Shown here one piece after another: positions 8,801 to 24,857 of a stretch of DNA of 32,000 nt. The notes beneath the pieces are model-generated. The model worked only from the letters and a program-made list of their open reading frames with translations. It was not told where the DNA came from and ran no database searches. Source of the stretch: Nitrosomonas europaea (GTDB lineage Bacteria > Pseudomonadota > Gammaproteobacteria > Burkholderiales > Nitrosomonadaceae); contig NZ_FUWK01000014.1 of NCBI RefSeq assembly GCF_900167395.1, forward strand, positions 18,458 through 50,457, read 5' to 3'. The first letter of the stretch is position 1. Every line of letters begins with the position of its first letter. The position numbers were made by a program, and so were the translations under genes.

Positions 8801-8920
8801 GAAAAAATCATGCCGATGGCTGTCACCATTGCGTTTGGCATGCTCTTCACGTTTTTCGTCACACTGTTTCTGGTACCGGCCGTGTGTGTCGTATTCAACA
8901 AAAATATCCAAAGCGGTTAG
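5798..8920 (+). CDS. RND efflux transporter permease (AcrB/AcrD/AcrF superfamily, not HME-type)
   Basis: 1040 aa with two large periplasmic loops and a 12-TM layout. The TM4 motif is SVVVDDAIIVGEH, which is HAE-like; the heavy-metal DFG-DGA-VEN signature is absent. Confidence 0.93.
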   Translation: MKLIIWFVKNPVAANLLMILIIVGGIVGLITADRYVYPPEPRHQLQITTIYDGAGPGEVEQAICIPIEHAVHDLQGVRHLHAEAKQSLCRVLVEFDPAVDATRLQAEVQARLEAVTVFPEDADKPVIRELKTGPQAIIATVRGMADLRTLQHYRDRLHIRLSTHPDIGQILLFPEIPYEVSIEITREDLRRYGFSFDEIAEMIRAVSGNISAGELKNTDGRLLIRSQAQAMTAEDFAAIRLRSDRQGMQLKLGDIAHITETVRDQSMLVRSDGLPAMEILIWPRNQLGKTVDAVNQVITAFHSELPADVEVITWDDWSKYYDENMSMLRGNAISGFILIFVVLALVLDMRLALWVSAGILISVFGAFWWIPILGISLNVYTITALILILSVVVDDAIIVGEHIYLLQQRGQSGISGAIGGVRAMAPLVVPMVLTTVIAFTPGLLLPGLTGHLLYNISAVAILALLFSMTETLLILPAHLAGQSPKDPDAATGIMPHFLRYAMATLKEQVDNGLRWLTGCYTRALHLALQWRYIVIAGFTAALLLIAALVISGRITTVLDRSVDDYYLVGMLKFPAGTAFEEVDRQLFRLGHIAHEIRAELNQKYYCDDSAENGDSVRHVLMFSNDNVAVVNLEMAIDDRIRDQVDDIKQQWRERFGPLPAGTTLTLQSFWPRDLGVSTEGPPKAIEWVLTAPDTAVQNAAGEILKHKLAAYAGVHSVTSSMQPGKPELHLELKPAAAFYGLTMRDLSEQVRHGFFGLEVQRYYHEHDEIRVMLRFPQEDRQALEQLQNMPIRLPGGNSVPFGTIARAEYQSGFASIQRTDRERIQLIGAEVYQDQVDVESILADMRVHVIPQLKAQFPGLDIKPGESRQKQEEVMSDLWLYGVLALFGMYALLAIPLRSYAQPLIIMLTVPFGFIGAVVGHLLFRIPLSLESYFALFAVSGIVINDSLVLIAQINKNLQQKISVIRAAVAAGKSRFRAILLMNVTTLAGLLPQLSSQGYDAEKIMPMAVTIAFGMLFTFFVTLFLVPAVCVVFNKNIQSG

Positions 8921-9008: not shown

Positions 9009-9054
9009 TGCGACAATTTGTCACATTTTTCGGTCCGGAGAAAGACAGTATGAT
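9009..9054 (+). promoter_or_regulatory. Palindromic operator plus promoter, site A (upstream of ECF sigma 1)
   Basis: TGCGACAATTTGTCACA at 9009-9025, then TTTTTC at 9026-9031 and a 17-nt spacer. TATGAT at 9049-9054 is 35 nt before the ATG at 9090. Four other sites share this architecture. Confidence 0.6.
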
Positions 9055-9089: not shown

Positions 9090-9590
9090 ATGACAATTAC
9101 CTATTCCGGCGATGAACTGTTTCTTCAACTGCGCGGTGATCTGCTGAATTATCTGTGTCGCAAGCTGAGCAAAGATGAAGCAGCCGATATACTTCAGGAA
9201 ATCTATCTGCGATGGCGCAGGCAGGATATCTCGAGTATCGAAAACCCGCGCGCCTTCCTGTTTACCGTTGCGCTCAATCTGATCCGGGATCAGGCACGCC
9301 GGCAGGCGCATGTGCAAACCTACGCCAATACCATGCAACACCTGTTTCAGGATAAACCTGCGGACTATGATCTGGCACAGCATTGTGACGAACGCAGACA
9401 AATAGAATATCTGCAGCAGGCTCTGGATCAGTTGCCGGAAAATGTACGCCATGCTTTTCTTCTTTTTCGCCTCGATGGTTTGACATTTGCTGAAATCGCA
9501 CTGCAGATGGGTATTTCAAGCAAATCCGTGGCACGCTACATTCAGCACGCCAGCGAGCACTGCCTGACTGCTCTTGCGCAATATCGGTGA
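9090..9590 (+). CDS. ECF sigma factor, FecI group (sigma 1)
   Basis: Region 2 (EAADILQEIYLRWRR, ENPRAFLFTVALNLIRDQARR) and region 4 HTH (LTFAEIALQMGISSKSVARYIQHA). It is followed by a FecR-type gene. Confidence 0.9.
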   Translation: MTITYSGDELFLQLRGDLLNYLCRKLSKDEAADILQEIYLRWRRQDISSIENPRAFLFTVALNLIRDQARRQAHVQTYANTMQHLFQDKPADYDLAQHCDERRQIEYLQQALDQLPENVRHAFLLFRLDGLTFAEIALQMGISSKSVARYIQHASEHCLTALAQYR

Positions 9591-9658: not shown

Positions 9659-10642
9659 ATGCACCTATCAAACAGTCCGAATTCGCATGACCCTGATGCA
9701 CAGGCACGATTCTGGTTCGCACGGCAGCAGGGTCAGACTTTGTCGGAAGCGGAACAGCAGCAACTGGCTGAATGGCTGGCTGCCAATCCACTGCATCAGG
9801 ATGCCTGGCGGCGTGTGGAGGAGGACTGGCTGGCAATCGACCGTTATCGTCATGCACTGAATGATGAGTTGAAAAAGGCACGCCGTAACCGTCCCGGACA
9901 GCATAAAGCGGCCTTTCAACTTAAACGACGGGCGGCAGCTGCAGCTCTGTTGGTGGCAGTATGCATTCCTGTGCTGTATCAGGGCATGACCGGAACGACA
10001 ACATACTGGAACACCTTGAAAGGTGAACAGCAGCAGATCACCCTGGCCGGTGGCTCCACTCTGAATCTGGATACTGCAACGCGTATCACTGTCACGCAGA
10101 ACTGGTTCACACATCATGTCCAGCTGCATGAAGGTGAAATCTATCTGGAGACGGCATCATCCGACTGGCATACTTTGAGAGTGAGTGCGGAGCATTACGA
10201 AATTCGTGATATCGGCACACGTTTTTCGGTCAGGTATATCCCTGATCAGTTCATGGTCGAAGTTGCTGAAGGTACGGTTGAAGTAAAAAAACAGGGACAG
10301 CTGGTGTTACTGCAAGCGGGTGAAGTACTTTCCATCATTACCGGCAGTAATGAATGGAGGCTGGCGGCACTGCCGGCAGGGGATATCGCTCACTGGCGCA
10401 AAGGTCTGCTGGTATTCAATGCACACCGGCTGCATGACGTATTACACGAAATCGCACGCTATCATACGGTTCAATTCGATCTGGCCGATTCCGCCATTGG
10501 CGAGATACAGGTCAGCGGTCGTTTCAAGCTCGATGAGCTCGATACCAATCTGCAAATCATCGCCGATACACTGAAAATCAATATCGAACACCCGGCACCC
10601 GGCCGTTACAGGCTGGGTGCCTTGCGGCAATCAACACGCTGA
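9659..10642 (+). CDS. FecR-family transmembrane anti-sigma factor (anti-sigma 1)
   Basis: N-terminal anti-sigma segment (ARFWFARQQ), one TM helix (AAAALLVAVCIPVLY) and a periplasmic FecR domain with IRDIGTRFSV. That Gly-Thr matches the position of the autoproteolytic GT described for FoxR/FecR-type proteins. Confidence 0.9.
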   Translation: MHLSNSPNSHDPDAQARFWFARQQGQTLSEAEQQQLAEWLAANPLHQDAWRRVEEDWLAIDRYRHALNDELKKARRNRPGQHKAAFQLKRRAAAAALLVAVCIPVLYQGMTGTTTYWNTLKGEQQQITLAGGSTLNLDTATRITVTQNWFTHHVQLHEGEIYLETASSDWHTLRVSAEHYEIRDIGTRFSVRYIPDQFMVEVAEGTVEVKKQGQLVLLQAGEVLSIITGSNEWRLAALPAGDIAHWRKGLLVFNAHRLHDVLHEIARYHTVQFDLADSAIGEIQVSGRFKLDELDTNLQIIADTLKINIEHPAPGRYRLGALRQSTR

Positions 10643-10753: not shown

Positions 10754-11377
10754 TTATTTGAAATGTCTGATACGGGTATATTCTCCTTCAGTTTTGAGCG
10801 TAATCGTCATCGGGGTGGATGTCCGGTTTCGCCAGAACCACCCATGATCACCGTCAAAAGCTGCTTCTAAGACGCCTTCCCGCATTTGTCCGGTCCCCTT
10901 GCTGTAACTATGGTAGTTGATCTTCAGTTCTTTTGAATCTCCATGCTGATCAAAAACAGCTGTTCCACCATTAGTCCGCCAAACGTAGTGAACTTTACTT
11001 CCCTTTGTCATCGTCACCTTGATCTCAGTACCTTGATTTGGGGCAAGCGTTATCTTTTTTTCATGACTCATCTCTGATTTTGGAGCAAGCGGCAGAGATT
11101 CTGTTACTGCTGTTACCGCTTCAGATAATTCGATCTGCAGGCTGGCAGCCGCATTCGCCCGATCTGCAGTTGCTTCTTCTGTCAGAGAAACTTTGATTTC
11201 TCCCATTCTTTTCAGACCGGTGATTTCACCGAAACCGGTTGGATCGATACCGTATTCCGCAGGCATTACAACAGTGACGAGTAAAAATATCGCAGTCAGT
11301 AATGCAATGACGGTAGATCTGATCAATCTGCCGGTTGAGGGTATCTCATGAGTTGAAGGTATGTTTGCGTTATACAT
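10754..11377 (-). CDS. membrane-anchored periplasmic protein of unknown function (N-terminal TM anchor plus His/Trp-containing beta-rich C-terminal domain)
   Basis: 207-aa ORF with a TM anchor (LIRSTVIALLTAIFLLVTVVMPA). The C-terminal ~110 aa are beta-like (KVHYVWRTNGGTAVFDQHGD, NYHSYSKG, FDGDHGWFWRN). It begins 20 nt downstream of the HupE-type gene on the same strand. I recognise no characterised family. Confidence 0.7.
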   Translation of the reverse strand: MYNANIPSTHEIPSTGRLIRSTVIALLTAIFLLVTVVMPAEYGIDPTGFGEITGLKRMGEIKVSLTEEATADRANAAASLQIELSEAVTAVTESLPLAPKSEMSHEKKITLAPNQGTEIKVTMTKGSKVHYVWRTNGGTAVFDQHGDSKELKINYHSYSKGTGQMREGVLEAAFDGDHGWFWRNRTSTPMTITLKTEGEYTRIRHFK

Positions 11378-11397
11378 AATTTTTCCTGTAAGAATAA

Positions 11398-12081
11398 TCA
11401 GATAGTGCTGAATAAAATGAAATGGCCTGTAATCTGGTATCCCATCAAGAGGAAGCCGAGCATCATCATGAATGTATTGGTGTTATAGGCGTGGTTCATG
11501 AATTTTCCGGATTTCCTCCAATATGCAATTGCGATCAGAATGGCCGCCAGTGCCAGAATTTGTCCGATCTCGACACCGATATTGAAGAAAATGAGATTTG
11601 GCAGGAGTCCATCAGCCGGTAATTCGTACTCCAGGATCTTGGTGGCAAGGCCAAAACCATGAAACAGTCCGAAGATAAAAGTGGCAATCTTTGTATCAGG
11701 CTGAAAACCAAACCAGCGCTGAAAGGCTCCCATATTGTCCAGAGATTTGTAAACGATGGAAAATCCGATGATTGCATCGATCAGATAAGGGCTGACAGCA
11801 ACCTCAAACAGAACACCGGATAACAGCGTAATGACATGGCCGGCAGCGAACAGCGTGACATAAATACAGATGTCCTTCAGTCGATACAAAAAGAAAATCA
11901 CACCCAGCAGAAAAAGCAGATGATCGTGACCGGTCATCATATGTTTTGCGCCGAGATAAATAAAAGGTATCGGCAATATGCCGGTACTTTCCAGGATATA
12001 GCCCTTGTCACCCTCGGTGACACCATGCGCAGTAACATCAGAAGTAACTCCAAAAATTACTGCGATAAAAAGAGCCTTCAT
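11398..12081 (-). CDS. HupE/UreJ-family (HupE_UreJ_2-like) integral membrane metal permease
   Basis: Signal-like N-terminus (MKALFIAVIFGVTSDVTAHG) if started at ATG 12081; the ORF track extends to 12153. It has the GAKHMMTGHDHLLFLLGV motif (H-x3-G-x-DH-LL) followed by about 5 further TM helices. Confidence 0.8.
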   Translation of the reverse strand: MKALFIAVIFGVTSDVTAHGVTEGDKGYILESTGILPIPFIYLGAKHMMTGHDHLLFLLGVIFFLYRLKDICIYVTLFAAGHVITLLSGVLFEVAVSPYLIDAIIGFSIVYKSLDNMGAFQRWFGFQPDTKIATFIFGLFHGFGLATKILEYELPADGLLPNLIFFNIGVEIGQILALAAILIAIAYWRKSGKFMNHAYNTNTFMMMLGFLLMGYQITGHFILFSTI

Positions 12082-12364
12082 ACATAAACAAGTCAACACG
12101 CCATGCTCCACAGGAGATGACATTTTCATTTCAGTCATGCAAATTGTCTCCATGAATTACAGTCCGTGGATCCGGAATTTCCGTAAACCGCGGCGATGGA
12201 ACGGGTGCTGCAACAGTACTGGTTCTGTCAGGAATATAGCCTTTCCCCTGTCAAGTATCCGAGACAATGATTACCAGATGAAACCGGTAATACTGAGACA
12301 GGACATACAACAGACTGAAATCGCACTGGCGCTGACTGAGCCGTCAGCACACCCGATTGTGAAA

Positions 12365-12763
12365 TTAGTACCTGATTTCTAAAGAAGCGGTATTTCGAGG
12401 AGGGCGGAACGGTAAATCAAGAGTTGATTCAGGAATGCCGGCAGGAAAGAATCCGGGGATATTTTCCTTTCCCGGGAGAGATGGAATAATCGGTAGCAAG
12501 ATAAAATAGAAAGGCTGAAACTGCCCGGCTGCATGCAGGATTAAATGATCTGTGAAATCCGGATCGTTATCGAGGGTTTCGTCATGATGCTGATGAAACC
12601 CTGTATCTGCTGCGTGATCATGGTACGAATGATGATGATCGAATCTATGCGATACATGGAAATGATCAAGCTCATGTTTGAAGATTTCCTGATGGAATGA
12701 CCAGGCAACTGCATTTGTCAATAAACTGACAAACAGTATCAGAAGAATAAAATTGTCGGTCAT
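12365..12763 (-). CDS. His-rich secreted or membrane-anchored protein, unknown function (probable metal-binding)
   Basis: Preferred start is ATG 12763 (MTDNFILLILFVSLLTNAVAW), with AAGAGA 5 nt upstream. Alternative starts are ATG 12778 or the ORF-track GTG 12874. There are 15 His in a 55-residue stretch (FHQEIFKHELDHFHVSHRFDHHHSYHDHAADTGFHQHHDE...HLILH). It is the first gene downstream of operator site B. Confidence 0.65.
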   Translation of the reverse strand: MTDNFILLILFVSLLTNAVAWSFHQEIFKHELDHFHVSHRFDHHHSYHDHAADTGFHQHHDETLDNDPDFTDHLILHAAGQFQPFYFILLPIIPSLPGKENIPGFFPAGIPESTLDLPFRPPRNTASLEIRY

Positions 12764-13141
12764 ATATCTCTTGCCCATGGCAGCAAAACTGTATACACAC
12801 CCGATCAGATCGTCAACTTTTCTGATCTGATAAAAGGTGGTTTGATGATTGCACTGATTTTTCCTGAAAATCACACTGAAAACAGCTGACTAAATCCTGA
12901 CGACAGTGGACGAAAAGTGACATAAAAACAATGGCAGGAGAAGTAGAAAAAAAACGCCTGTCGATTTATAAAAAGACTATAAAAGGACAGGCAGAAGTAG
13001 AGGAGGGAAGCAATTACTTACCGGTGAGCACACTTTCATCCAGACAAGATCCGAAAGAAAAACCTGCATTCTTTCTCATGAATCTATATTCATATTGCAG
13101 ATATGAATCCGGATATCAGAGGTGGTACAGATAATGAGCCA

Positions 13142-13187
13142 ATTATGTTCTCAAACATCCTGTTTGAGAATGTGACATATTGTCGCA
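13142..13187 (-). promoter_or_regulatory. Palindromic operator plus promoter, site B (minus strand, faces the His-rich/HupE operon)
   Basis: On the minus strand: TGCGACAATATGTCACA (13187-13171), TTCTCA (13170-13165), a 17-nt spacer and CATAAT (13147-13142). The phasing is identical to the four sigma-gene sites. Confidence 0.55.
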
Positions 13188-13253
13188 TCGCTTATTTGGC
13201 GAGGCTTTTGGCTGAAAAGAAGTGCAAAATTCGAGTTGAAATGTATCGAGATA

Positions 13254-13284
13254 GGAACGGTCAGCTAAGCTGACCGTTCCTTTT
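13254..13284 (+). terminator. Rho-independent terminator-like hairpin (plus strand), no annotated gene upstream
   Basis: GGAACGGTCAGC / GCTGACCGTTCC forms a 12-bp perfect stem (13254-13265 and 13269-13280) with a 3-nt loop, followed by TTTT (13281-13284). There is no A-run on the other side, so it is plus-oriented. Confidence 0.55.
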
Positions 13285-13552
13285 CACATCATCCGGCATG
13301 CGAGTTCACAATCGCTGCACGGGCGAACGGAGAACATCCTGCTCGCTTCATGTCCCGGTTTTAAAATGTGCAATGTGGTAAGAAACTGCACCTAAGCAGG
13401 TGCCTCATTTCTGTTTGGCCTGTACGATATCTTCTGATATACCCTGATAACTCTTTGAAAATCATACATATACACATAGAAAAAGCTCAGAGACTTCAGT
13501 AACGCTGCTGTATGCAAAGGTGGGCATGATGTAAAGGTGTCCGCAAATCTGT

Positions 13553-13579
13553 TTGTCCACTTTTTCCGACCCGTGCGTC
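13553..13579 (+). promoter_or_regulatory. candidate ECF (FecI-type) promoter of receptor 1
   Basis: TTGTCC (13553-13558), 17 nt, then CGTC (13576-13579), 55 nt before the ATG. Similar elements precede the other three receptor genes. Confidence 0.35.
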
Positions 13580-13630
13580 CTGTAAGTAGCAAAAGATCAG
13601 AACGATCAACTTACAGGGAGTACGTCGAAA

Positions 13631-15994
13631 ATGCAGCACTATCTGTCAATCATGATTTTAATTCTGCTGTTGCCGGTTGCTCATGCCCAGACCGGGGCAG
13701 CAGGAAGCACTTCAACGGCGATCAACTGGCATCTGTCAGCCCAGCCTTTGAGCACAGCATTGCAGCAACTGGCTGAACACAGCAATACCAGTATCATGTT
13801 TGATGCAGCAACTGTCCGTAACATTCAGGCTCCATCCCTCCGTGGCCAGTACACGCCGCTGGAAGCATTGAAAAAACTATTGTCCGGCAGCGGCCTGCAG
13901 GCCGAGGAAACGGTACCCGGCAGGTTCAGTATCGTACAGGCAGCAACAACCGTACAGCAGTTACCGGAAATGACTGTCACCGGCGCTCCTGATCCGGATT
14001 CACCGTACAGCACGCAATATAAAGTACCTGATACGACGACGGCGACCAGGACGAAAACGCCGATCATGGAAACACCGATGTCGATACAGGTGGTGCCTAA
14101 ATCAGTGATGAACGATCAGCAGGCGATTACGCTGGAGCAGTCGCTAAGAAACGTCAGTGGCGTTTTTCACGGGATTGGTCAAGGTGGGGTGGAATTTCTT
14201 AATATCCGTGGTTTTCAGACTTGGGATTACTATCGAAACGGTGTGCGGTTTACATCTGCACAGACACAAACTGGTTACCGAGAAGTGGCCAATCTGGAAA
14301 GGATAGAAGTCCTCAAGGGGCCAGCTTCGATTCTGTATGGTCGGATCGAGCCGGGGGGAATGGTCAATCTGGTGCCGAAAACACCACAAGCCACGCCGTA
14401 TTATTCATTACAGCAACAATTCGGTTCATATAATCTGTTTCGTACCACGCTGGATGCTACGGGTGGATTGAATCAGGATAGTTCATTGCTGTACCGTCTG
14501 AATTTTGCCTATGAAGATAAGGGTTCGTTTCGCGAGTTTGTTGATAATCATCATTTCTTCGTGGCACCAGTGTTGCAATGGCAAATATCTGACCGTACCC
14601 AGATTACCGCTGAGATGGAATATAAGACCGGCAAGTACTCAGTGGACTATGGTTTTCCGGCGATTGGCAACCGACCAGCCAACTTGCCGATCAATCGTCA
14701 ACTGGGCGAATCATTTAATAGTGCTAAATTTGATGAAATTACAGCCGGATTCCACTGGTCTCATGCATTCAATGACAACTGGGAGATAAAACACCGTTTC
14801 TATCTGCAACGAACTGACGAAGGCGATGATGTTGTGATACCGTCGGCATTACGAACAGATAACCGTACTCTCGATCGTTTTTATGCGGGATTCAGAAACG
14901 CTAAAGTAGATACCTATACGACAAATATGGACTTGACGGGCCATGTTGAAACATTCGGGACCCAACATACGCTGCTGATGGGTGGCGATTATTACAATTT
15001 CAGAAATCGCCGCCTCATGATTTCGAATTTTGATTTTCCGTCCATTGATATTTTTAATCCGGTGCATAGTGGCACAGCTATTCGGGATTCGGCCAATGAT
15101 AGTCCTTATGACAGAAGAGATGACTGGTTTGGTCTGTATTTCCAGGATCAGATAAAATTACCCTATAACGTGCATGTGCTGGCAGGTTTCCGCTACGACA
15201 ATGCCGAGATAAAAAACATATCCGGAAGGAAAAGCGCGCAGGATAAAATTTCACCGCGTGTTGGCGTGTTATGGCAACCGATTCCAGCTCTTTCATTTTA
15301 CGGCAATTATATCGAGAATTTCGGCGCTCCAAATTTAGGCACGAGTGGACTCGACGGGCAGCCACTTCCAGCTGAAACAGCACAACAATGGGAAGCCGGG
15401 ATAAAAACAGAATTTTTTGACGGACGTTTTAGTGCAACACTTGCCTGGTTCCAGCTCACCAAGCAAAACATTGCAACCCCTCACCCTGATCCACAACTGG
15501 CGCTGCAGAGAATTTCAGTATTGACCGGAGAGGCGCGCAATCAAGGCGTTGAATTCGATATTACCGGTGAATTGTTACCTGGCTGGCAGTTGATTGCCAA
15601 TTATACTTATATCGATTCGGAAATAACCAAAACCAATAACAATATGCAGTTGGGTAACCGCTTCCCGAATGTACCCGAACACGCCGGTAATATCTGGACC
15701 ACTTATGCCTTTCAGAATGAAACCTTGCGTGGGTTGAAAATTGGTGGCGGTGTGACGCTCAGAGGAAAACGTGAAGGCAATCCGGAAAATGATTTTCAGA
15801 TGCCTGGTTACGCAGTTTTTAACCTGATGACGAGTTATGCAATGAAAATGGGTAAAACCCGGGTGACGGCACAGTTGAATGTCAATAATCTGTTTAATGA
15901 GGAATATTTCCCCGGTAGTGGTGGATTCAATCGTGCGCGTATCTTTGTAGGTACACCACGTGTATTTCTGGGCTCGCTCCGGGTCGAGTATTAA
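13631..15994 (+). CDS. TonB-dependent siderophore receptor with N-terminal STN signalling domain (transducer 1)
   Basis: Signal peptide (MQHYLSIMILILLLPVAHAQ) and an STN-like segment (LSTALQQLAEHSNTSIMFDAATV...LLSGSGLQAEE). TonB-box-like LPEMTVTG, plug motifs (TPMSIQVVPK, IEVLKGPASILYGRIEPGG) and a long barrel ending in LRVEY. Confidence 0.93.
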   Translation: MQHYLSIMILILLLPVAHAQTGAAGSTSTAINWHLSAQPLSTALQQLAEHSNTSIMFDAATVRNIQAPSLRGQYTPLEALKKLLSGSGLQAEETVPGRFSIVQAATTVQQLPEMTVTGAPDPDSPYSTQYKVPDTTTATRTKTPIMETPMSIQVVPKSVMNDQQAITLEQSLRNVSGVFHGIGQGGVEFLNIRGFQTWDYYRNGVRFTSAQTQTGYREVANLERIEVLKGPASILYGRIEPGGMVNLVPKTPQATPYYSLQQQFGSYNLFRTTLDATGGLNQDSSLLYRLNFAYEDKGSFREFVDNHHFFVAPVLQWQISDRTQITAEMEYKTGKYSVDYGFPAIGNRPANLPINRQLGESFNSAKFDEITAGFHWSHAFNDNWEIKHRFYLQRTDEGDDVVIPSALRTDNRTLDRFYAGFRNAKVDTYTTNMDLTGHVETFGTQHTLLMGGDYYNFRNRRLMISNFDFPSIDIFNPVHSGTAIRDSANDSPYDRRDDWFGLYFQDQIKLPYNVHVLAGFRYDNAEIKNISGRKSAQDKISPRVGVLWQPIPALSFYGNYIENFGAPNLGTSGLDGQPLPAETAQQWEAGIKTEFFDGRFSATLAWFQLTKQNIATPHPDPQLALQRISVLTGEARNQGVEFDITGELLPGWQLIANYTYIDSEITKTNNNMQLGNRFPNVPEHAGNIWTTYAFQNETLRGLKIGGGVTLRGKREGNPENDFQMPGYAVFNLMTSYAMKMGKTRVTAQLNVNNLFNEEYFPGSGGFNRARIFVGTPRVFLGSLRVEY
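13961..15994 (+). repeat. High-identity paralogous segment, copy 1 (plug plus barrel of receptor 1), matches 18226-20259
   Basis: Both copies are 2034 nt. They share long runs of identical nucleotides, for example gacgaaaacgccgatcatggaaacaccgatgtcgatacaggtggtgcctaaatcagt. Similarity starts at ttaccggaaatgactgtcacc and ends at the stop codon. Confidence 0.9.
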
Positions 15995-16170
15995 CCAGAA
16001 GATTGTGGCGGATCACCTTACAGGTATCCGCCAGGACTACACATCTGATGACAGGTTGAATTTCGATACATCAGCCGCTTTCGGGTGATTCTCATGGCAG
16101 CCTCATGCTTTACATGGCAATCCGGCAACGGATGGAGGTTATGATGAAAGCATGCCAGCAGGCCTTTCTC

Positions 16171-16216
16171 TGCGACAATTTGTCGCATTCCACCCTTATG
16201 GCAAACACAGCATAAT
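16171..16216 (+). promoter_or_regulatory. Palindromic operator plus promoter, site C (upstream of ECF sigma 2)
   Basis: Perfect 8-1-8 palindrome TGCGACAATTTGTCGCA (16171-16187), TTCCAC, a 17-nt spacer and CATAAT (16211-16216), 34 nt before ATG 16251. Confidence 0.65.
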
Positions 16217-16250: not shown

Positions 16251-16751
16251 ATGACCACCAGTTGTACCAATGATGAACTGTTCCTCCAGTTACGTAATGA
16301 CTTGCTGAATTTTCTGTATCGCAAGGTGGGGAGAGATGAAGCAGCTGATATGGTCCAGGAAGTTTATCTGCGCTGGCGTAAACAGGATGTTTCATCCATC
16401 GAAAATCCTCGCGCGTTTTTGTTTACGGTTGCGCTCAACCTGATTCGTGACAGCTCACGCCAGCAAATTCGTGTGGACAAACATACCACCGAAATACAGA
16501 ACTTCTTTGAAATCGGCAATGCTGCGGACGATCCGGCACGACGTTATGACGGCCAAAGACAACTGGCAAGTTTGCTGCACGCATTGAATCAGCTACCGGA
16601 ACCGGTAGGCCATGCATTTCTCCTGTTTCGTTACGATGGTATGACTCATGCACAAATTGCCAAACAACTGGGCGTTTCCAGCAAAACAGTGGAACGCTAT
16701 ATTCAGCGTGCAGGTGAACATTGTCTGGCTATACTGGCAGAGTATCGGTGA
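16251..16751 (+). CDS. ECF sigma factor, FecI group (sigma 2)
   Basis: Start moved from ORF-track 16152 to ATG 16251. The extension would cover the operator and the -10 box. MTTSCTNDELFLQLRNDLL aligns residue-for-residue with sigma 1 (MTITYSGDELFLQLRGDLL), and both proteins are then 166 aa. Confidence 0.9.
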   Translation: MTTSCTNDELFLQLRNDLLNFLYRKVGRDEAADMVQEVYLRWRKQDVSSIENPRAFLFTVALNLIRDSSRQQIRVDKHTTEIQNFFEIGNAADDPARRYDGQRQLASLLHALNQLPEPVGHAFLLFRYDGMTHAQIAKQLGVSSKTVERYIQRAGEHCLAILAEYR

Positions 16752-16817
16752 TAATCATCTTTTGTCGATCATGCCTGTCCTGAATGTCCTGTGGTTAAAA
16801 GCGCAGGAGAAAATTGC

Positions 16818-17768
16818 ATGCCCGAATCTTTTCATGATGATATCGATGCAACGGCTCGTCACTGGTTTATCCGCCAGCAAGGCCGTGCACTTTCCGCAGA
16901 GGAGCAGCGCGCCCTGACGGACTGGCTTGCAGCCAGTCCGGATCACCGTACAGCCTGGACACGTGCAGAAGAGGACTGGCAATCGCTGGATCGTTTTCGT
17001 ACGGATCTGTCCAGCGAACTGAACAAGGCACGCCATTATCGTCCTCGTCATCACTCTTCTCGCTACCTCAAATGGGCCGCTGCAGCACTGGTGCTGATAG
17101 CACTTCCCATACTCTACCGCGCATCGACCGGCATCCCCCGGCATTGGCAAACGGCAACGGGTGAGCGGCAGCACGTCACACTTGCCGATGGCAGCCAACT
17201 GAGTCTGGATACAGCAACGCGCGTAACCATCACTCAAAGCTGGTTCCAACGCCTTATTCAACTGCAGGAGGGAGAAATTTATCTGGAGGTGGCGCCCGAC
17301 TGGCGTCCGCTGCAGGTAACAGCTGCCGATACACGAATTCGTGATATTGGTACCCGTTTCTCCGTACGCGATACGCCAGAAAAATTTACCGTACAAGTGG
17401 AAGAAGGCGCCGTGGAAATCATCCGCCGGGATAAACATCTCGTACTGCATGCCGGAGAAACCGTGACCCGCCATCCGGCAACCGATCGATGGCAACTGGC
17501 TACCGTGCAGGGAGACATTGCAAACTGGCGTCAGGGCATACTGGTATTCGACCAGCATCGATTGCCGGAAGTGCTGCAGGAACTGGCACGTTATCATGCC
17601 GTTCGATTCGATCTGGCCGACCCTGCCCTGGGAAGGAAACAGATCAGCGGGCGTTTCCGGCTTGACGAGCTCGATACCACCTTGCGCATCATTGCTGAAA
17701 CGCTGAATCTGAACATCGAACACCCAACACCCGACCGGTACCTGTTGAGCGCAGCGCAGAAACAGTAA
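16818..17768 (+). CDS. FecR-family anti-sigma factor (anti-sigma 2)
   Basis: ATG 16818 follows an AGGAGA RBS at 16805-16810; the ORF track uses GTG 16791. It has ARHWFIRQQ, a TM helix (AAAALVLIALPILY) and IRDIGTRFSV. It is a paralogue of anti-sigma 1. Confidence 0.9.
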   Translation: MPESFHDDIDATARHWFIRQQGRALSAEEQRALTDWLAASPDHRTAWTRAEEDWQSLDRFRTDLSSELNKARHYRPRHHSSRYLKWAAAALVLIALPILYRASTGIPRHWQTATGERQHVTLADGSQLSLDTATRVTITQSWFQRLIQLQEGEIYLEVAPDWRPLQVTAADTRIRDIGTRFSVRDTPEKFTVQVEEGAVEIIRRDKHLVLHAGETVTRHPATDRWQLATVQGDIANWRQGILVFDQHRLPEVLQELARYHAVRFDLADPALGRKQISGRFRLDELDTTLRIIAETLNLNIEHPTPDRYLLSAAQKQ

Positions 17769-17834
17769 ACGAAGCAGCAGTCGCCGGACACACCTCGTTC
17801 ACTTTCCGGCACCATCATTAAAAATCTCTTCTGA

Positions 17835-17862
17835 CTGACGGTTTACTGCAATCTGGTTCGTC
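17835..17862 (+). promoter_or_regulatory. candidate ECF (FecI-type) promoter of receptor 2
   Basis: CTGACG (17835-17840), 18 nt, then CGTC (17859-17862), 52 nt before the ATG. The CGTCCTATGTAAG stretch resembles CGTCCTGTAAG upstream of receptor 1. Confidence 0.3.
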
Positions 17863-17910
17863 CTATGTAAGGAAGTTCCAATTAAGAACATTCTTACTCA
17901 GGGAGAAACT

Positions 17911-20259
17911 ATGCTTCGTTCAGGCCTTTTCTTGGCTGTCGTCATGCTCGCCAGCCCCATCGTGCAGGCACAAATATCCGCTACACAGCAACAGCCAGCA
18001 TTGCCGCTTGCTGCAGCTTTGCAACAACTGGCTGTCCGGCACAATCTCAGTATCGTATTCGATGCAGAAATCGTGAAAGATAAACAAGCTTCACCGTTAT
18101 CCGAGAATCTTTCCATCCGGGAAGCACTCGATACGCTGCTGAACGGCAGCGGCCTGCAGGCCAAAGAAATCGCACCGGGCCGTTACAGTATCGTAAAGGC
18201 GACAACAGGAGCAATGCAGCAGACATTACCGGAAATGACTGTCACCGGCGCCTCTGACCCGGATTCGCCTTACAGTACGCAGTATAAAGTACCCGATACG
18301 ACGACAGCGACCAGGACGAAAACGCCGATCATGGAAACACCGATGTCGATACAGGTGGTGCCTAAATCAGTCATGAATGATCAGCAGGCGATCACGCTGG
18401 AGCAGTCGCTAAGCAACGTCAGTGGTGTTTTTCCCGGACTTGGATTCAACGGGGTCGAGACTTTTAATCTCCGCGGTTTTAATACCTGGGATTATTACCG
18501 TAACGGTGTACGGTTTCAGTCCGCACTATCACAGACCGGTAACCGGGAAGTGGCCAATCTGGAGAGAATTGAAGTATTGAAGGGGCCGGCATCGATTCTG
18601 TTCGGTCGGATCGAGCCTGGGGGAATGATCAATCTGGTGCCGAAAACACCGCAAGCTACACCGTATTATTCACTACAGCAACAATTCGGCTCATATAACC
18701 TGTTTCGTACCACATTGGACGCCACCAGCAGCCTGAACCAAGATAACTCATTGCTGTACCGCCTGAACTTTGCCTATGACAATGAGGGCTCATTCCGGGA
18801 GTTTGTGAATAGTCATCATTTCTTCGTTGCACCGGTATTGCAATGGCGTATTTCCGACCGTACCCAGATCACTGCTGAAATGGAATATAAAACAGGGAAA
18901 TATGCGCATGATTACGGTTTTCCTGCGATCGGCAATCGCCCGGCCAACTTGCCGGTCAATCGTCAACTGGGCGAATCATTTAATAGTGCCAAATTTGATG
19001 AAATTACAGCCGGATTCCACTGGTCGCACGCATTCAATGATAATTGGGAGATAAAACACCGCTTCTATCTGCAGCACACCGATGAAGACGATAATGTTGC
19101 CCTGCCACTGGAATTACGCGCTGACAACCGCACACTGGACCGGTTTTTTGCCGGATTCAGAAACAACAAAATAGAAACGTATACTACCAATGTAGATTTG
19201 ACCGGCCATATCGATACCTGGGGTATCAAACATACGTTGTTGATGGGGGGTGATTACTATAATTTTAGAAATCACGGCCTCATGATTGACAACTTTAATT
19301 TTCCGTCGATTGATATTTTCAATCCGGCACATAGTGGCGTGGCTGTGCGCGATCCTGCGGATGACATCCCCTATGACACAAAAGAAGACTGGTTTGGTCT
19401 GTATTTCCAGGACCAGATAAAACTGCCTTATAACGTGCATGTGCTGGCAGGTTTTCGCTACGACAATGCCGAGATAAAAGACAACATATCCGGGAGGGAA
19501 AGCGCGCAGGATAGAATTTCACCGCGTGTTGGCGTGTTATGGCAGCCTATTCCAGCCCTTTCGTTTTATGGCAATTATGTCGAGAATTTCGGCGCTCCAA
19601 ATTTATATGGAAGCGGATTGGACGGACAGCCACTTCCAGCCGAAACGGCCCAGCAATGGGAAGCCGGCGTCAAAACAGAATTCTTTGATGGGCGTCTCAG
19701 CGCAACGCTTGCCTGGTTCCAGCTCACCAAACAAAACATTGCAACCCTCCACCCTGATCCACAACTGGCGCTGCAGAGAATTTCAGTATTGACCGGAGAG
19801 GCGCGTAATGAAGGTATAGAACTGGATATTACCGGCGAGCTGTTGCCTGGCTGGCAGGTTATCGCTAACTACGCTTATATCAATTCAGAAGTTACCAAAA
19901 CCAATGACAATACGTTGGGCAATCGCTTTCCGAATGTACCCGAACACGCCGGAAATATCTGGACTACTTATGCCTTTCAGAATGAAACCTTACGTGGATT
20001 GAAAGTTGGCGGGGGCGTAACGCTCAGAGGCAAGCGTGAAGGCAATTTGGAGAACGATTATCAAATGCCCGGTTACGCTGTATTCAACCTGATGACCAGC
20101 TACGGCATGAAGGTGGGCAAAACCCGGGTGACTGCACAGTTGAATGTCAACAATCTCTTCAATGAGGAATATTTCCCCAGCAGTGGTGGATTTGGCCGCA
20201 CACGTATTGCTGTAGGTACGCCACGTGTATTCCTGGGATCGCTCCGGGTTGAGTATTAA
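17911..20259 (+). CDS. TonB-dependent siderophore receptor with STN signalling domain (transducer 2)
   Basis: Signal peptide (MLRSGLFLAVVMLASPIVQAQ), an STN-like segment, LPEMTVTG, then plug and barrel. The GGGAG RBS matches the one before receptor 1. Confidence 0.93.
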   Translation: MLRSGLFLAVVMLASPIVQAQISATQQQPALPLAAALQQLAVRHNLSIVFDAEIVKDKQASPLSENLSIREALDTLLNGSGLQAKEIAPGRYSIVKATTGAMQQTLPEMTVTGASDPDSPYSTQYKVPDTTTATRTKTPIMETPMSIQVVPKSVMNDQQAITLEQSLSNVSGVFPGLGFNGVETFNLRGFNTWDYYRNGVRFQSALSQTGNREVANLERIEVLKGPASILFGRIEPGGMINLVPKTPQATPYYSLQQQFGSYNLFRTTLDATSSLNQDNSLLYRLNFAYDNEGSFREFVNSHHFFVAPVLQWRISDRTQITAEMEYKTGKYAHDYGFPAIGNRPANLPVNRQLGESFNSAKFDEITAGFHWSHAFNDNWEIKHRFYLQHTDEDDNVALPLELRADNRTLDRFFAGFRNNKIETYTTNVDLTGHIDTWGIKHTLLMGGDYYNFRNHGLMIDNFNFPSIDIFNPAHSGVAVRDPADDIPYDTKEDWFGLYFQDQIKLPYNVHVLAGFRYDNAEIKDNISGRESAQDRISPRVGVLWQPIPALSFYGNYVENFGAPNLYGSGLDGQPLPAETAQQWEAGVKTEFFDGRLSATLAWFQLTKQNIATLHPDPQLALQRISVLTGEARNEGIELDITGELLPGWQVIANYAYINSEVTKTNDNTLGNRFPNVPEHAGNIWTTYAFQNETLRGLKVGGGVTLRGKREGNLENDYQMPGYAVFNLMTSYGMKVGKTRVTAQLNVNNLFNEEYFPSSGGFGRTRIAVGTPRVFLGSLRVEY
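18226..20259 (+). repeat. High-identity paralogous segment, copy 2 (plug plus barrel of receptor 2), matches 13961-15994
   Basis: See copy 1. The lengths are equal because of compensating 1-codon indels (IKNISGRK vs IKDNISGRE; NNNMQLGN vs NDNTLGN). Confidence 0.9.
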
Positions 20260-20261
20260 CC

Positions 20262-21494
20262 ATGTCTTCCGAGTCAGCGCATCAACATGCTGCAGGGGTG
20301 GATGAAGAGCGCGGTACATTACCGCGGCGTTCGTGGCGCCAGCTCTGGCTGAGCATCCACCTTTATCTGGGGTTGTTCATCGGTGCGCTGCTGGTCATTC
20401 TGGGGCTTACCGGCAGCATCGCGGTGTTCTGGGCCGAGATCGATGAGTGGTTGAATCCGGAGCTGCTGACTGTCACGGTGCCTGAGCAGAAAAACCTGGC
20501 ACCAGGCGCACCTGCTTATCAATCACTGGATGAGATCATTCGTGTGGCCAGACAGGCGGCCGCTCCGGATAGCAGAATTACAACCGTTTACGGTGCACGC
20601 AATAGCGAAGCGGTCTATGCCGTTTATGCCAGCCAGCCATCCAGCGCCTGGCAGCGAATCTTTGTAGATCCCTATCGCGCGCAGGTAACCGGGGTACGCA
20701 GCTATGGCGCAAATGAGTGGATACCCAACTACTTCATGGATGTCATCTTCCAGCTCCATTTCAGTCTGTTGCTGGGTATGAACGGGCAAACGCTGATGGC
20801 TGTCTGCGCACTGCTGTTGCTGGTATCCCTGATCACCGGGTTGATCGTCTGGTGGCCAACATCGGGGCAATGGCGCAAGGCGTTGACCATCAAGCGCGGT
20901 GCCGGCCCGGTGCGTTTCAACTTTGATCTGCACAAAACGCTTTCGCTTTACCTCTTTCCGGTATTAGGTGCGGTGCTGCTGTCCGGGGTGTTCATGAACC
21001 TCAACGAGCCGTTCGTGTGGGTGACTCAACTGTTCTCACCTGCAACCCGGCAACCACAACACACACTCACATCAATCCCTATTACGGGTATACCCTCGAT
21101 CGGGGCTGAGCACGCATGGGCCATTGCCACCGAACACTACCCGGACGGTAAGTTTGGCGGCATGTTCATGCCCGGGAATGCTGAAGGCGTCTATATCGTG
21201 ACCCAGAAGCATGTGCCGAAGTTGAGTGCGTTCTGGTCGGAGCGGCAAATCGCGATCGATCAGTACAGCGGCGAGATACTGGACGTGCGTGCGCCGGATG
21301 CGCGCCGCAGTGCGGGGGAAACCTTTCTGGAATGGCAATGGCCGCTGCACTCGGGCCAGGCGTTCGGCTGGCCCGGACGCATCCTCATCTTCCTGTGCGG
21401 ACTGGCCTGCCCGGTCATTTACGCCACAGGCGTCATCCGCTGGTTGCAGAAGCGGCGGGGAAAGGGGAGGAGCCCCCGGCGTCCAATCCGGTGA
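20262..21494 (+). CDS. PepSY-associated TM-helix protein (PiuB/FoxB-like)
   Basis: The ATG lies 2 nt after the receptor 2 stop. It has the RRSWRQLWLSIHLYLGLFIGALLVILGLTGS N-terminal motif, further TM helices and a C-terminal WPLHSGQAFGWPGRILIFLCGLACPVIYATGVIRW. Confidence 0.88.
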   Translation: MSSESAHQHAAGVDEERGTLPRRSWRQLWLSIHLYLGLFIGALLVILGLTGSIAVFWAEIDEWLNPELLTVTVPEQKNLAPGAPAYQSLDEIIRVARQAAAPDSRITTVYGARNSEAVYAVYASQPSSAWQRIFVDPYRAQVTGVRSYGANEWIPNYFMDVIFQLHFSLLLGMNGQTLMAVCALLLLVSLITGLIVWWPTSGQWRKALTIKRGAGPVRFNFDLHKTLSLYLFPVLGAVLLSGVFMNLNEPFVWVTQLFSPATRQPQHTLTSIPITGIPSIGAEHAWAIATEHYPDGKFGGMFMPGNAEGVYIVTQKHVPKLSAFWSERQIAIDQYSGEILDVRAPDARRSAGETFLEWQWPLHSGQAFGWPGRILIFLCGLACPVIYATGVIRWLQKRRGKGRSPRRPIR

Positions 21495-21842
21495 GCTCGG
21501 GTTCAATCAATGGATTCTCGATTCCTACACCGGCGAGGAACCGGGGCGTTGCCATTTTTGCGTTAAAAGTCGGCTCAAAATGCTCATTTATCACGTATAA
21601 ACTCGGCTTTCTCGCCGATTTTTGCCTTGAACTGGCTGCCTCGCTAACATTTTTCAGAGGTTCCTAATTCCATTTCTAAATCAAAACTAACTTTGTCGGC
21701 TTCGCCTGGCCGTATTATTTATACTGTCTGCGGCTTGCCTTCGTGTCATTTTTGATTTGGGAATGGAATAAGCACCAGAAAAAGAATGAGCTGGAATGAT
21801 CTTTTCCTTTTGGCGCCATTTTGCCTTTGAGTGTGTCTGATA

Positions 21843-21874
21843 ATGTGTTACAACGTAATTCTTGTTTAACACAT
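21843..21874 (+). promoter_or_regulatory. inverted repeat upstream of the antitoxin gene (possible autoregulatory operator)
   Basis: ATGTGTTA (21843-21850) and TAACACAT (21867-21874) are 8-bp arms separated by 16 nt. They end at the GGAGGA RBS of the RHH antitoxin gene. Confidence 0.3.
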
Positions 21875-21887
21875 GGAGGATGTGCAG

Positions 21888-22175
21888 ATGTCAGAATCCA
21901 CCTTTACTTTCCGGGTTGATGAAGACCTGAAAACCGAGTTCTCAGCGGCTGCCAAAGACTGCGACCGTAGCGGTGCGCAACTGTTGCGCGACTACATGCG
22001 GGAGTTTGTAAAGACGCGGCGTGAAGTGGCCGAGCATGACGCATGGTTCCGTAAACAGGTGCAAATTGGCCTGGACTCGGCTAATACTGGCAATCTGGTT
22101 CCGGGAGATGAGGTAGAGGCCGAGTTTGCGGCCAGGCGGGCAGCCACACGTCGCAGGCTTAAAGCTTCAGAATGA
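21888..22175 (+). CDS. parD: ribbon-helix-helix antitoxin (ParD/RelB-like) of a ParE-family toxin
   Basis: ATG 21888 follows GGAGGA (21875-21880); the ORF track uses 21873. N-terminal RHH-like segment (FTFRVDEDLKTEFSAAAKDCDRSGAQLLRDYM). The stop overlaps the toxin start. Confidence 0.75.
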   Translation: MSESTFTFRVDEDLKTEFSAAAKDCDRSGAQLLRDYMREFVKTRREVAEHDAWFRKQVQIGLDSANTGNLVPGDEVEAEFAARRAATRRRLKASE

Positions 22176-22462
22176 TGAAATTGTTCTGGACACCAGAAGC
22201 GTTACAAGATCGCGATGCAATCTATGACTACATCGAAGTCGACAACCCGCGCGCCGCTCTGGCGCTTGACGAGCTTTTTTCAGAGAAGGCGCAGCGTTTG
22301 CCTGATCATCCCGCCCTGGGTCATCCGGGCCGTGTGGCTGGTACCCGTGAGCTAATTGCCCATCAGAATTACATCATCATTTATGATGTGACGGGCGAAC
22401 TGGTGCGGGTGTTGCGTGTGCTTCACGCGGCACGGCAATGGCCTCCTTCAGAAAACGATTGA
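22172..22462 (+). CDS. parE: RelE/ParE-family type II toxin
   Basis: 96 aa. KLFWTPEALQDRDAIYDYI, LPDHPALGHPGRVAGTRELI and YIIIYDVTGELVRVLRVLHAARQW match the ParE family pattern. Confidence 0.85.
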   Translation: MMKLFWTPEALQDRDAIYDYIEVDNPRAALALDELFSEKAQRLPDHPALGHPGRVAGTRELIAHQNYIIIYDVTGELVRVLRVLHAARQWPPSEND

Positions 22463-22516
22463 TTTGTGTCGCCAGCACAGTGATATCTTTGTGGGACTTG
22501 GGGAGCTTGATCAAGC

Positions 22517-22933
22517 TTACTCAAAAGTAAAGGGATCAAGTATTGAAATACCAATTTTTGGCATGTCGGCAACATTCCGCGTTACCAGGGTAAGTCTGTA
22601 CACCTGTGCGGTAGCGGCCAGAAGGCTGTCCACGGTCGGCCTCGGATTGGGGGAATTCAAGCACCCCCATTGATCGGCGACTGCTTGGTCGACGGGCAGG
22701 ATGCGGCCAGAAAAGCCCGCTATCAGGGCATCGAGCCATTGTTCCAGGCGAGCGGCCTTAGTGGGGGCGCGTAAACGTGCCAGTTCGATGCCTTTACGAA
22801 TCTCGCCGGTTACCAATACACTCAGGAACAGGTCGTCATCAGACGTCTGTCCCCACCATTTGGCGACATGTGGATCACAGCGTTTGCCTTTACGCACTTC
22901 GGCGATGATGTTGGTATCGATGAGATAACTCAT
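22517..22933 (-). CDS. vapC: PIN-domain type II toxin VapC
   Basis: MSYLIDTNIIAE (first acidic residue), GEIRKG, TVDSLLAATA and LVTRNVADM: all PIN catalytic-position motifs appear intact. 138 aa. Confidence 0.88.
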   Translation of the reverse strand: MSYLIDTNIIAEVRKGKRCDPHVAKWWGQTSDDDLFLSVLVTGEIRKGIELARLRAPTKAARLEQWLDALIAGFSGRILPVDQAVADQWGCLNSPNPRPTVDSLLAATAQVYRLTLVTRNVADMPKIGISILDPFTFE

Positions 22934-23119: not shown

Positions 23120-23165
23120 TGCGACATTATGTCGCATTTCAAACAGTTTTTCTGTCCCGCATAAT
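23120..23165 (+). promoter_or_regulatory. Palindromic operator plus promoter, site D (upstream of ECF sigma 3)
   Basis: Perfect palindrome TGCGACATTATGTCGCA (23120-23136), TTTCAA, a 17-nt spacer and CATAAT (23160-23165), 43 nt before ATG 23209. Confidence 0.65.
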
Positions 23166-23208: not shown

Positions 23209-23712
23209 ATGAATCCCAGCGTAATTCTTGCCAACCTTTACCTGCGCCATTTCAGCGAGTTACGTGCTTTCCTGTTCAGGCATACGGGTTGCAGAGAAAT
23301 TGCGGCAGAGCTGACCCAGGAAACCTTTATCCGCATTATGGGTTACCAGACTGATACATCGATACAGAACGCGCGTGCCTTGCTGTACCGTATCGCGGGT
23401 AATCTGGCGATCGATCACCATCGTACCTGTGTGAAATTTCCAGAAAGCGTTTCTATCGATGATCTTCCGCAACATGAACTGCCCGCGACTGAATTGACCG
23501 ACCCCGCTCGGCTGGTAGCTGCACGCCAGCTACTGGAAAAACTGTGTATCGCGATTGATGCACTACCGCCACAATGTCATCGTGCTTTCGTACTGCATAA
23601 ATTTGACGGTTACTCACATGCGGAAATCGCCGAAAAACTGGGAATCACCCGCAATGCCGTCGAAAAACTGTTGATTCGCGCACTCATCCGGTTACGCCAG
23701 GTGCTTGTGTAA
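23209..23712 (+). CDS. ECF sigma factor, FecI group (sigma 3)
   Basis: Start moved from ORF-track GTG 23119, which lies over the operator, to ATG 23209 (MNPSVILANLY). Region 2 (AAELTQETFIRIM, ARALLYRIAGNLAIDHHR) and region 4 HTH (YSHAEIAEKLGITRNAVEKLLIRA). Confidence 0.9.
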   Translation: MNPSVILANLYLRHFSELRAFLFRHTGCREIAAELTQETFIRIMGYQTDTSIQNARALLYRIAGNLAIDHHRTCVKFPESVSIDDLPQHELPATELTDPARLVAARQLLEKLCIAIDALPPQCHRAFVLHKFDGYSHAEIAEKLGITRNAVEKLLIRALIRLRQVLV

Positions 23713-24794: not shown

Positions 24795-24857
24795 TTATCA
24801 GGTAAGCCAGTCCGCTGGCATATACCGATCAAAGATAAAAATATTCAGGGATGAATC

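Follow-up and report, generated by a model that had tools for sequence, protein, structure and literature searches.

A 17-bp palindrome at a fixed distance from the -10 box of FecI-type sigma factor genes in Nitrosomonas europaea, a predicted RegA-type box

Results

Organization of the locus

The 32-kb stretch of the Nitrosomonas europaea genome analysed here (hereafter: the window) comprises four FecI/FecR/FecA-type units, each of which was identified with Pfam as an ECF sigma gene (Sigma70_r2/r4_2), followed by a FecR-type anti-sigma gene (DUF4880, FecR and FecR_C) and by a gene for a TonB-dependent receptor with STN, Plug and barrel domains; the receptors were assigned by NCBIfam to the TonB-siderophore family. 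All units are encoded on the plus strand. The first consists of fecI-1 (9090-9590) and fecR-1 (9659-10642), with a presumed partner receptor at 13631-15994. The second spans 16254-21494 and comprises fecI-2 (16254-16751), fecR-2 (16791-17768), the receptor gene (17911-20259) and a gene for a PepSY_TM protein (20262-21494). The third (23209-27203) comprises fecI-3 (23209-23712), fecR-3 (23712-24641) and the receptor gene (24858-27203), and the fourth (27465-31671) fecI-4 (27465-27992), fecR-4 (28092-29123) and the receptor gene (29272-31671). A fifth fecI-fecR-receptor unit is located directly upstream of the window. The units are paralogous, and two of them exhibit 65% identity at the DNA level. 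In Nitrosomonas, which relies on the siderophores of other organisms, there are some twenty FecI/FecR/receptor sets, for the control of which little more than "probably Fur" has been put forward.

The minus strand carries a three-gene operon (10754-12874), which encodes a His-rich protein of 169 aa (12365-12874), a member of the HupE_UreJ_2 family (11398-12153) and a product of 207 aa (10754-11377), for which no family match was found. The putative transcription start of this operon would give it a leader of about 260 nt. Neither this leader nor the whole window contains a match to an Rfam family at the gathering score, and the other hits are at chance level.

A scan of both strands of the window with the pattern TGCGACAWWWTGTCRCA yielded exactly five matches, all of them intergenic and upstream of genes. 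The mean number expected by chance is 0.01, and none of 100 dinucleotide-preserving shuffles reached ten strand matches, which bears out the five-copy 17-bp palindrome reported in the preliminary description. Four of the five sites are located on the plus strand and precede the ECF sigma genes: TGCGACAATTTGTCACA at 9009-9025 upstream of fecI-1, TGCGACAATTTGTCGCA at 16171-16187 upstream of fecI-2 and again at 27371-27387 upstream of fecI-4, and TGCGACATTATGTCGCA at 23120-23136 upstream of fecI-3. Those at 16171, 23120 and 27371 are perfect 8-1-8 palindromes. The fifth site, which reads TGCGACAATATGTCACA on the minus strand (13171-13187), is found upstream of the three-gene operon. A sixth copy, also perfect, lies just upstream of the window (L132:2518), about 100 nt before the fifth fecI gene. 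In a relaxed scan of the window the five sites had at most one mismatch, while the next best candidates, separated from them by a gap in the score, had three to four mismatches and were located within long ORFs. The analysis supports the earlier view of a phased cis-regulatory palindrome, as opposed to a REP-type repeat.

It had been also suggested that the ORFs starting at 16152, 23119 and 27294 are over-extended. This is plausible, as in the shorter proteins the start of the Sigma70_r2 domain is found at residues 9-12; the public annotations differ with respect to the starts of the sigma genes (199 vs 177 aa, 162/167 aa and 218/219 aa).

Geometry of the promoters

At each of the five sites exactly 23 nt are found between the end of the palindrome and a -10-like hexamer, i.e. 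the hexamer starts at the 24th nucleotide, in agreement with the phasing originally claimed. On the plus strand the putative -10 elements are TATGAT (9049-9054), CATAAT (16211-16216), CATAAT (23160-23165) and GATAAT (27411-27416), after the palindromes upstream of fecI-1, fecI-2, fecI-3 and fecI-4, respectively. The CATAAT hexamer that accompanies the minus-strand palindrome is a part of a promoter-like element, TTCTCA-17-CATAAT (13142-13170, minus strand), which adjoins the palindrome and was also picked by an independent promoter scan. The six nucleotides directly 3' of the palindrome (TTTTTC, TTCCAC, TTTCAA, TTCTCA and TTCTCA for the sites 9009, 16171, 23120, 27371 and 13171) are T-rich and resemble a weak -35 hexamer. 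The usual distance from the -10 box to the transcription start is 7 nt, and with the start sites placed according to this rule, the palindrome would cover roughly the positions -52 to -36, be centred near -44 and abut the weak -35 region, which supports the location proposed before.

We aligned seven promoters with MAFFT: the five from the window, the sixth from just upstream of it and one fecI promoter of Nitrosomonas aestuarii. The invariant columns fall within the palindrome, in the TT that follows it and at four of the six -10 positions, and one more is found upstream, while the flanks around the palindrome and the -10 hexamer are not conserved and do not align. This agrees with the notion that it is the palindrome and its phasing that have been conserved among otherwise divergent sequences.

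Similarity to the binding sites of the RegA family

Patterns have been published for the binding sites of three related response regulators, namely SSGNVRDNHYSNCSS for RegA, YSCGGC(5)GWCRMA for PrrA and GNGRCRTTNNGNCGC for RegR (PMC5506826), and a RoxR consensus, GCGGCAATTTAGAGC, is in use for Burkholderia. In a direct comparison, the inner 15 nt of the palindrome, GCGACAATTTGTCGC, match every specified position of the RegA pattern and 10 of the 11 positions of the RegR pattern (all 11 in the case of the site at 23120), while the full 17-mer matches 11 of the 12 positions of the PrrA pattern. The window motif has the same length and spacing as all three patterns, and like the regulon sites of the RegB/RegA systems (PrrB/PrrA, RegS/RegR, ActS/ActR, RoxS/RoxR) it is a GCGNC-N5-GNCGC inverted repeat. 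The alphaproteobacterial RegA motif is described as degenerate and variable in spacing and has given no strong consensus in ChIP-seq, whereas the window sites are near-perfect 17-bp palindromes at one position; for Acidithiobacillus, no RegA consensus could be derived (PMC5506826).

On the protein side, the DNA-reading helix of the Nitrosomonas RegA (NVSVTARILNMHRRTLQRKLAKR) is almost unchanged with respect to that of PrrA from R. sphaeroides (NVSETARRLNMHRRTLQRILAKR; PDB 1UMQ), and the helix-turn-helix motifs of the two proteins are nearly identical.

Distribution of the palindrome in other genomes

The exact palindrome TGCGACAWWWTGTCGCA was searched for in one genome per species, which resulted in at least 120 loci. 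About three-quarters of the 120 loci listed are from Beta- and Gammaproteobacteria, as counted from the record titles, including about 17 from Nitrosomonas, Nitrosospira and other Nitrosomonadales and seven from Gallionella or Sideroxydans. Among the 120 loci listed, 110 of 129 sites (85%) are located outside long ORFs. The genes that recur beside the palindrome encode TonB receptors, the Phenol_MetA_deg outer-membrane family, PCuAC, DUF1775, NosZ, NirS, TonB and FecI-like sigma factors; one neighbouring TonB receptor was classified as a copper receptor, above the curated NCBIfam cut-off, and the tonB genes of a Gallionella and of N. eutropha carry the box. Among the members of RegA-type regulons in other taxa are nosZ, nirS, genes for copper chaperones, and iron and TonB genes. 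Another recurrent neighbour of the palindromes is a BNR-like protein of about 400 aa, to whose family the first ORF of the window also belongs.

The promoter geometry is found in other genomes as well. Of the 253 flanks examined next to perfect palindromes in the 120 loci listed, 42 have a hexamer with at least five of the six TATAAT positions starting 22-23 nt after the palindrome, while the other offsets are represented mostly by 0-3 flanks each, and none by more than five. The -35 region beside the palindrome, weak in the window, is not conserved in other genomes. Given that the fecI-fecR-receptor units are paralogous, one might consider the palindrome a mere relic of their duplication, or a REP-like repeat that plays no regulatory role. 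The probability of such an origin appears negligible, for the 17-mer and the -10 hexamer are invariant amid unconserved flanks, one of the sites precedes an unrelated operon, and the motif recurs intergenically and in the same phase in distant genera.

In seven cases the gene directly beside the palindrome encodes a histidine kinase, and next to it is the gene of a regulator (176-220 aa) that according to Pfam comprises only a receiver domain and a Fis-type HTH_8 domain, without the AAA+ domain. By tblastn, such a pair of a kinase and a REC+HTH_8 regulator was found in 12 of the 120 palindrome loci listed. The neighbouring regulators are named RegA by JGI and NCBI, and the stretch MHRRTLQR is common to the Nitrosomonas RegA and PrrA (1UMQ). 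Two kinases that we examined carry the sequences GGSTNPF and GGATNPF, which fit GGXXNPF, the quinone-binding motif described for RegB, and one kinase (L110) was scanned against NCBIfam, with ActS/PrrB/RegB as its top match.

The identity of the neighbouring regulators bears on several other types of sites. NtrC-type sites, TGCACC-N5-GGTGCA, the proteins of which act from a distance on sigma-54 promoters, share with the window motif the 17-bp inverted repeat, the TGC...GCA ends and recognition by a dimer with a Fis-type HTH. They differ in that the window promoters have -10 boxes of the sigma-70 type and that the regulators found beside the palindrome lack the AAA+ domain; on reading the promoters, no GG-N10-GC element was found, and a sigma-54 promoter was rejected. 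Class II sites of CRP and FNR (TGTGA-N6-TCACA or TTGAT-N4-ATCAA, centred near -41.5) resemble the arrangement in the window insofar as a dimeric activator binds next to a weak -35, or in its place, at a constant distance from the -10 box, and the TGYGA...TCRCA ends of the palindrome are CRP-like. The half-sites GACAA/TTGTC in turn bring to mind the copper box of CusR/CopR, regulators of the OmpR family, and copper proteins (PCuAC, DUF1775, NosZ and the TonB copper receptor) are encoded beside the sites in other genomes. Nonetheless, the arms of the palindrome (TGCGA-N7-TCGCA) are one base closer than those of the CusR box and one base further apart than those of CRP (N7 as opposed to N6, or N4 in FNR), the centre would be at -44 and not at -41.5, and the recurrent neighbouring regulator is of the REC+HTH_8 type, a protein family other than OmpR or CRP. 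On these grounds both the copper box and the CRP/FNR site, the latter one of the two guesses offered in the preliminary description, were dropped; that either of them accounts for the palindrome seems to us very improbable indeed.

The palindrome in loci selected by RegA

A reciprocal analysis was carried out with 80 metagenome loci that had been picked by the similarity of the RegA protein alone; 53 of them contain at least 1750 nt upstream of regA. The palindrome, with at most two mismatches, was found 1300-1750 nt before regA, i.e. just upstream of regB, in 37 of these 53 loci, as compared with 10 matches in the remaining 630 kb of the same loci, or about 0.007 per 450 nt. The link between the palindrome and regB holds over a GC content from 37% to 67%, and in many of these promoters a -10-like hexamer is found 21-24 nt from the palindrome towards regB. 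The presence of the box upstream of regB in loci selected by protein sequence links the palindrome with the regBA genes themselves, an arrangement that autoregulation of a two-component system would lead one to expect. Based on these comparisons, we predict that the 17-bp palindrome is a box of the RegA/PrrA/ActR/RegR/RoxR type, and consider this identification probable.

These data have also to be weighed against the other of the two original guesses, a protein of the Fur family. The palindrome might be the operator of a metal-sensing repressor, such as one of the two non-canonical Fur-family paralogs of Nitrosomonas, similar to NE0730 or NE1722, which would shut off fecI when iron or another metal is plentiful. 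FecI-type genes are usually repressed by Fur, those of N. europaea are reported to be induced by iron starvation and move together with NE0730, and an odd-centred inverted repeat is reminiscent of the 7-1-7 boxes of the Fur family; besides, RegA was not found for the europaea/eutropha-like lineage among the matches listed (see below). However, the sequence of the palindrome is unlike Fur boxes, and the single N. europaea Fur box that has been published resembles that of E. coli. Within the promoter regions of the five sites we found neither a match of at least 13/19 to the Fur consensus GATAATGATAATCATTATC nor one of at least 11/14 to the 7-1-7 consensus TGATAATnATTATCA, and all matches in the window that reach these thresholds are within long ORFs. 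The site would lie upstream of the -35, overlapping neither the -35 nor the -10, and on account of this position and the absence of a consensus match in the promoters we rejected its identity as a Fur box. No Fur-family gene was detected by tblastn (with E. coli Fur as a query) in the 120 palindrome loci listed, in 132 loci in all or in the window, as opposed to 12 of the 120 loci with regBA, and the motif precedes regB in the majority of the RegA loci described above. We therefore regard control by such a repressor as unlikely.

RegA in Nitrosomonas

Proteins named RegA are found in N. oligotropha, N. ureae, N. aestuarii, N. cryotolerans and N. supralitoralis, as well as in the strains Is79A3, Nm84 and JL21. 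One of the loci selected by RegA (L141; GC 0.49) encodes a protein 98% identical to RegA of Nitrosomonas sp. wSCUT-2 and carries the box TGAGACAATTTGTCGCA about 75 nt before regB; together with two others (L213 and L214), it makes three Nitrosomonas regB promoters with the box. Another RegA is encoded at a locus whose soil source and GC content led us to take it as Nitrosospira-like. In N. aestuarii RegA occurs together with a fecI promoter that carries the same box at the same spacing. One Nitrosomonas lineage has regBA in divergent orientation to an operon for the BNR-like protein and CopC, and two boxes lie between them.

No RegA or RegB from the europaea/eutropha-like lineage of the window, which has a GC content of 0.50, was found among the matches listed, that is among the best 120 of each of two protein lists and in 20 expanded clusters; these lists reach down to 76% and 83% identity and consist mostly of unnamed entries, about a quarter of the proteins searched carrying a name. 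There is no regBA within 10 kb on either side of the window, and no publication on Nitrosomonas RegBA came up in our literature search. Searching for exact copies of the neighbouring proteins NrdR, GlyA and RibD gave no match. The genes ribD and nrdR-glyA are not adjacent in N. europaea, unlike in the surroundings of regBA in other Nitrosomonas species, and because of this separation the synteny around regBA in those species is of no use in N. europaea. Nevertheless, near-consensus sites with the spacing typical of the family argue that a protein of RegA specificity is present in the lineage of the window.

One can also envisage that a different transcription factor, which responds to another signal, took over the RegA-type box here, for example after the loss of regBA. 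Such a take-over would agree with the lack of a europaea/eutropha RegA among the matches listed, and with the observation that the Nitrosomonas targets found here are all uptake genes and not the respiratory genes typical of RegA. Against it speak the presence of RegA in a Nitrosospira-like lineage and in at least eight lineages of Nitrosomonas, and the near-consensus sites with identical spacing, which are most simply explained by the same protein. We consider a take-over to be quite improbable, and in the following we assume that the box is read by RegA.

Discussion

A proposed mechanism

In this family the kinase RegB is established as a sensor of quinone-pool redox state, and it phosphorylates RegA. 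We propose that the same would take place in the lineage of N. europaea, where a RegA dimer would bind with its Fis-type HTH to each palindrome, at -44. Phosphorylated RegA would then compensate, in the manner of a class II-type activator, for the poor -35 of sigma-70 promoters with a good -10, recruiting RNA polymerase to the four FecI operons of the window (five with the one upstream) and to the His-rich/HupE operon, a presumed metal-uptake operon. FecI, once freed from FecR upon binding of a ligand by the cognate TonB receptor, would drive the gene of that receptor. The outcome would be a three-tier cascade, from RegB/RegA to FecI/FecR to the TonB receptor, in which RegA sets the competence for siderophore-induced receptor expression according to the respiratory state. 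The box on tonB in N. eutropha and Gallionella and on the His-rich/HupE operon would make this a coordinated metal-uptake regulon.

The palindrome layout fits best a class II-type activator promoter. The preliminary description had left the choice between occlusion of the -35 by a repressor and class II-type activation; the latter is favoured, since the spacing between the palindrome and the -10 recurs in many genomes, including the regB promoters, and a repressor fits less well. That RegA activates the window promoters rather than represses them is suggested by the same layout at the regB promoters, by the mostly positive action of PrrA, reported for all but one of its direct target operons, and by the deletion of regA in Methylomonas sp. 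DH-1, after which feo, the tonB operon and the gene of a TonB receptor are expressed at 3-23% of the wild-type level (PMC13274454). The direction of control is nonetheless uncertain, because the RegA regulon of R. capsulatus includes about 40 iron-uptake genes, most of which are repressed.

The reported induction of the N. europaea fecI genes by iron starvation is not explained by the RegA model by itself. Iron limitation could possibly enter through the quinone pool, which might become more reduced during a shortage of haem and iron-sulfur proteins; alternatively, Fur could act on regBA, or a second regulator could be involved. When ammonia- and oxygen-limited chemostats of N. europaea were compared, genes annotated as fecI, which may or may not be those of the promoters described here, changed at most 2.7-fold and in both directions.

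Comparison with known systems

The units in the window resemble the Fur-controlled fecIR-fecA signalling system in the combination of an ECF sigma factor, a FecR anti-sigma factor and a TonB receptor with an STN domain, and in that the sigma gene is the regulated entry point. They differ from it in the lack of a Fur box and in the position of the element, which would be upstream of the -35, as for an activator, and not over the -35 or -10. FecI-type sigma genes, at promoters devoid of a Fur box, are thus candidate direct targets of RegA, a role not reported for them in the literature that we found.

Gating of iron import by the redox state has a parallel in Methylomonas sp. DH-1, where RegB/RegA are needed for the expression of a TonB receptor, tonB-exbBD and feo, and where ChIP located RegA at feo, but not at the promoters of the TonB receptor or tonB (PMC13274454). 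That work described RegA as acting indirectly on the receptor and tonB, with the intermediary left unnamed, whereas here the box is found on the promoters of ECF sigma genes and on tonB of N. eutropha. ECF sigma genes could be the intermediary in this indirect control of methanotroph TonB receptors by RegA, reported in 2026.

Conclusions

The RegA-type box is an element of a known kind; what we propose as new is a direct cascade in which RegBA would act on FecI sigma factors and these on TonB receptors, no Fur box being recognisable at the promoters. In its widest form, which we put forward tentatively and to which we give slightly less than even credence, this would mean that RegB/RegA rather than Fur is the direct master switch of TonB-dependent metal uptake in Nitrosomonas, acting on the genes for FecI sigma factors, tonB and the His-rich/HupE transporter from a box fixed at -44; that Beta- and Gammaproteobacteria possess a sharply defined RegA regulon centred on the acquisition of iron and copper; and that ECF sigma factors are the missing indirect link in methanotrophs. 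The crisp motif, TGCGACA-N3-TGTCGCA at 22-23 nt before the -10, is of interest for a regulator whose site has proved difficult to pin down in alphaproteobacteria and in Acidithiobacillus. If the model is true, the respiratory redox state would gate which siderophore receptors are inducible, and the supply of iron would be tied to the haem- and iron-rich electron transport chain of these bacteria.

The palindrome at fecI genes and its spacing from the promoter

A sixth copy of the 17-bp palindrome, the proposed RegA box, was found some 6.5 kb before the window begins (L132:2518-2534, L132 being the DNA that precedes the window). It is perfect and precedes a fifth fecI-fecR-receptor unit by about 100 nt, and therefore all fecI genes of this island, which exceeds 40 kb, carry the palindrome. 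In 120 genome loci from across taxa that contain a perfect copy (L007-L126), a -10-like hexamer starts 22-23 nt past the palindrome in 42 of the 253 flanks, while each of the other offsets is represented by five flanks or fewer. The fixed geometry of palindrome and -10 element is a property of the regulator, beyond this window alone.

Gene content and variability of the island

Behind the fifth palindrome, the minus-strand operon at 10754-12874 is preceded by an untranslated leader of about 260 nt (12875-13134, minus strand), for which no Rfam match was found. It encodes three proteins: one of 169 aa that is very rich in histidine (HELDHFHVSHRFDHHHSYHDHAADTGFHQHHDE), a HupE_UreJ_2 protein and one of 207 aa, for which a family match was sought and none was obtained. 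The operon looks like a metal-uptake module.

The iron-uptake island also harbors a complete RND efflux set (2949-8920), comprising an outer-membrane factor, a membrane-fusion protein and an AcrB-type pump, flanked by a PepSY_TM gene and fecI-1; its promoter is devoid of the palindrome. Between two fecIR-receptor units (21873-22933) are two gene pairs that resemble toxin-antitoxin systems: in one a ParE toxin is paired with a protein of 95 aa, in the other a PIN protein with one of 92 aa. The stretch at 21664-21776 may be a small repeated element: its 113 nt are 94% identical to L084:6596-6708 of N. eutropha Nm24, where the location is not syntenic. Just past the window, after the last receptor-PepSY pair, the downstream flank (L127:13878-17677, L128:15736-19535) contains genes for two multicopper oxidases, of 912 and 339 aa, and for a REC-EAL protein.

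In the related strain GCA_048499195.1 (L002 / L131), the region equivalent to ~12900-16000 of the window is replaced by an IS1595-family transposase and sulfur-transport genes, in place of the fifth palindrome and the first TonB receptor; the palindrome of fecI-1 is retained.

Putative copper- or iron-uptake genes associated with the palindrome

A family of BNR-like proteins of about 400 aa, with only a weak match to BNR_2 and no NCBIfam name, is encoded directly downstream of the palindrome in several genomes (L026, L028, L058, L087). In one Nitrosomonas lineage (L214-L217:953-2248) its gene is the first in an operon with CopC, divergent from regBA, and in the window (7-1182) it follows a TonB receptor gene. 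These contexts point to a possible role in the uptake of copper or iron.

Finally, a RegB/RegA-like pair adjoins a TonB receptor gene, itself preceded by the palindrome, in several Gammaproteobacteria: Oceanisphaera, Agaribacterium and Neiella (L092, L037 and L082, respectively), the receptor being of the copper type in L092 and L037. This arrangement hints at copper supply as a core task of RegA in these Gammaproteobacteria.
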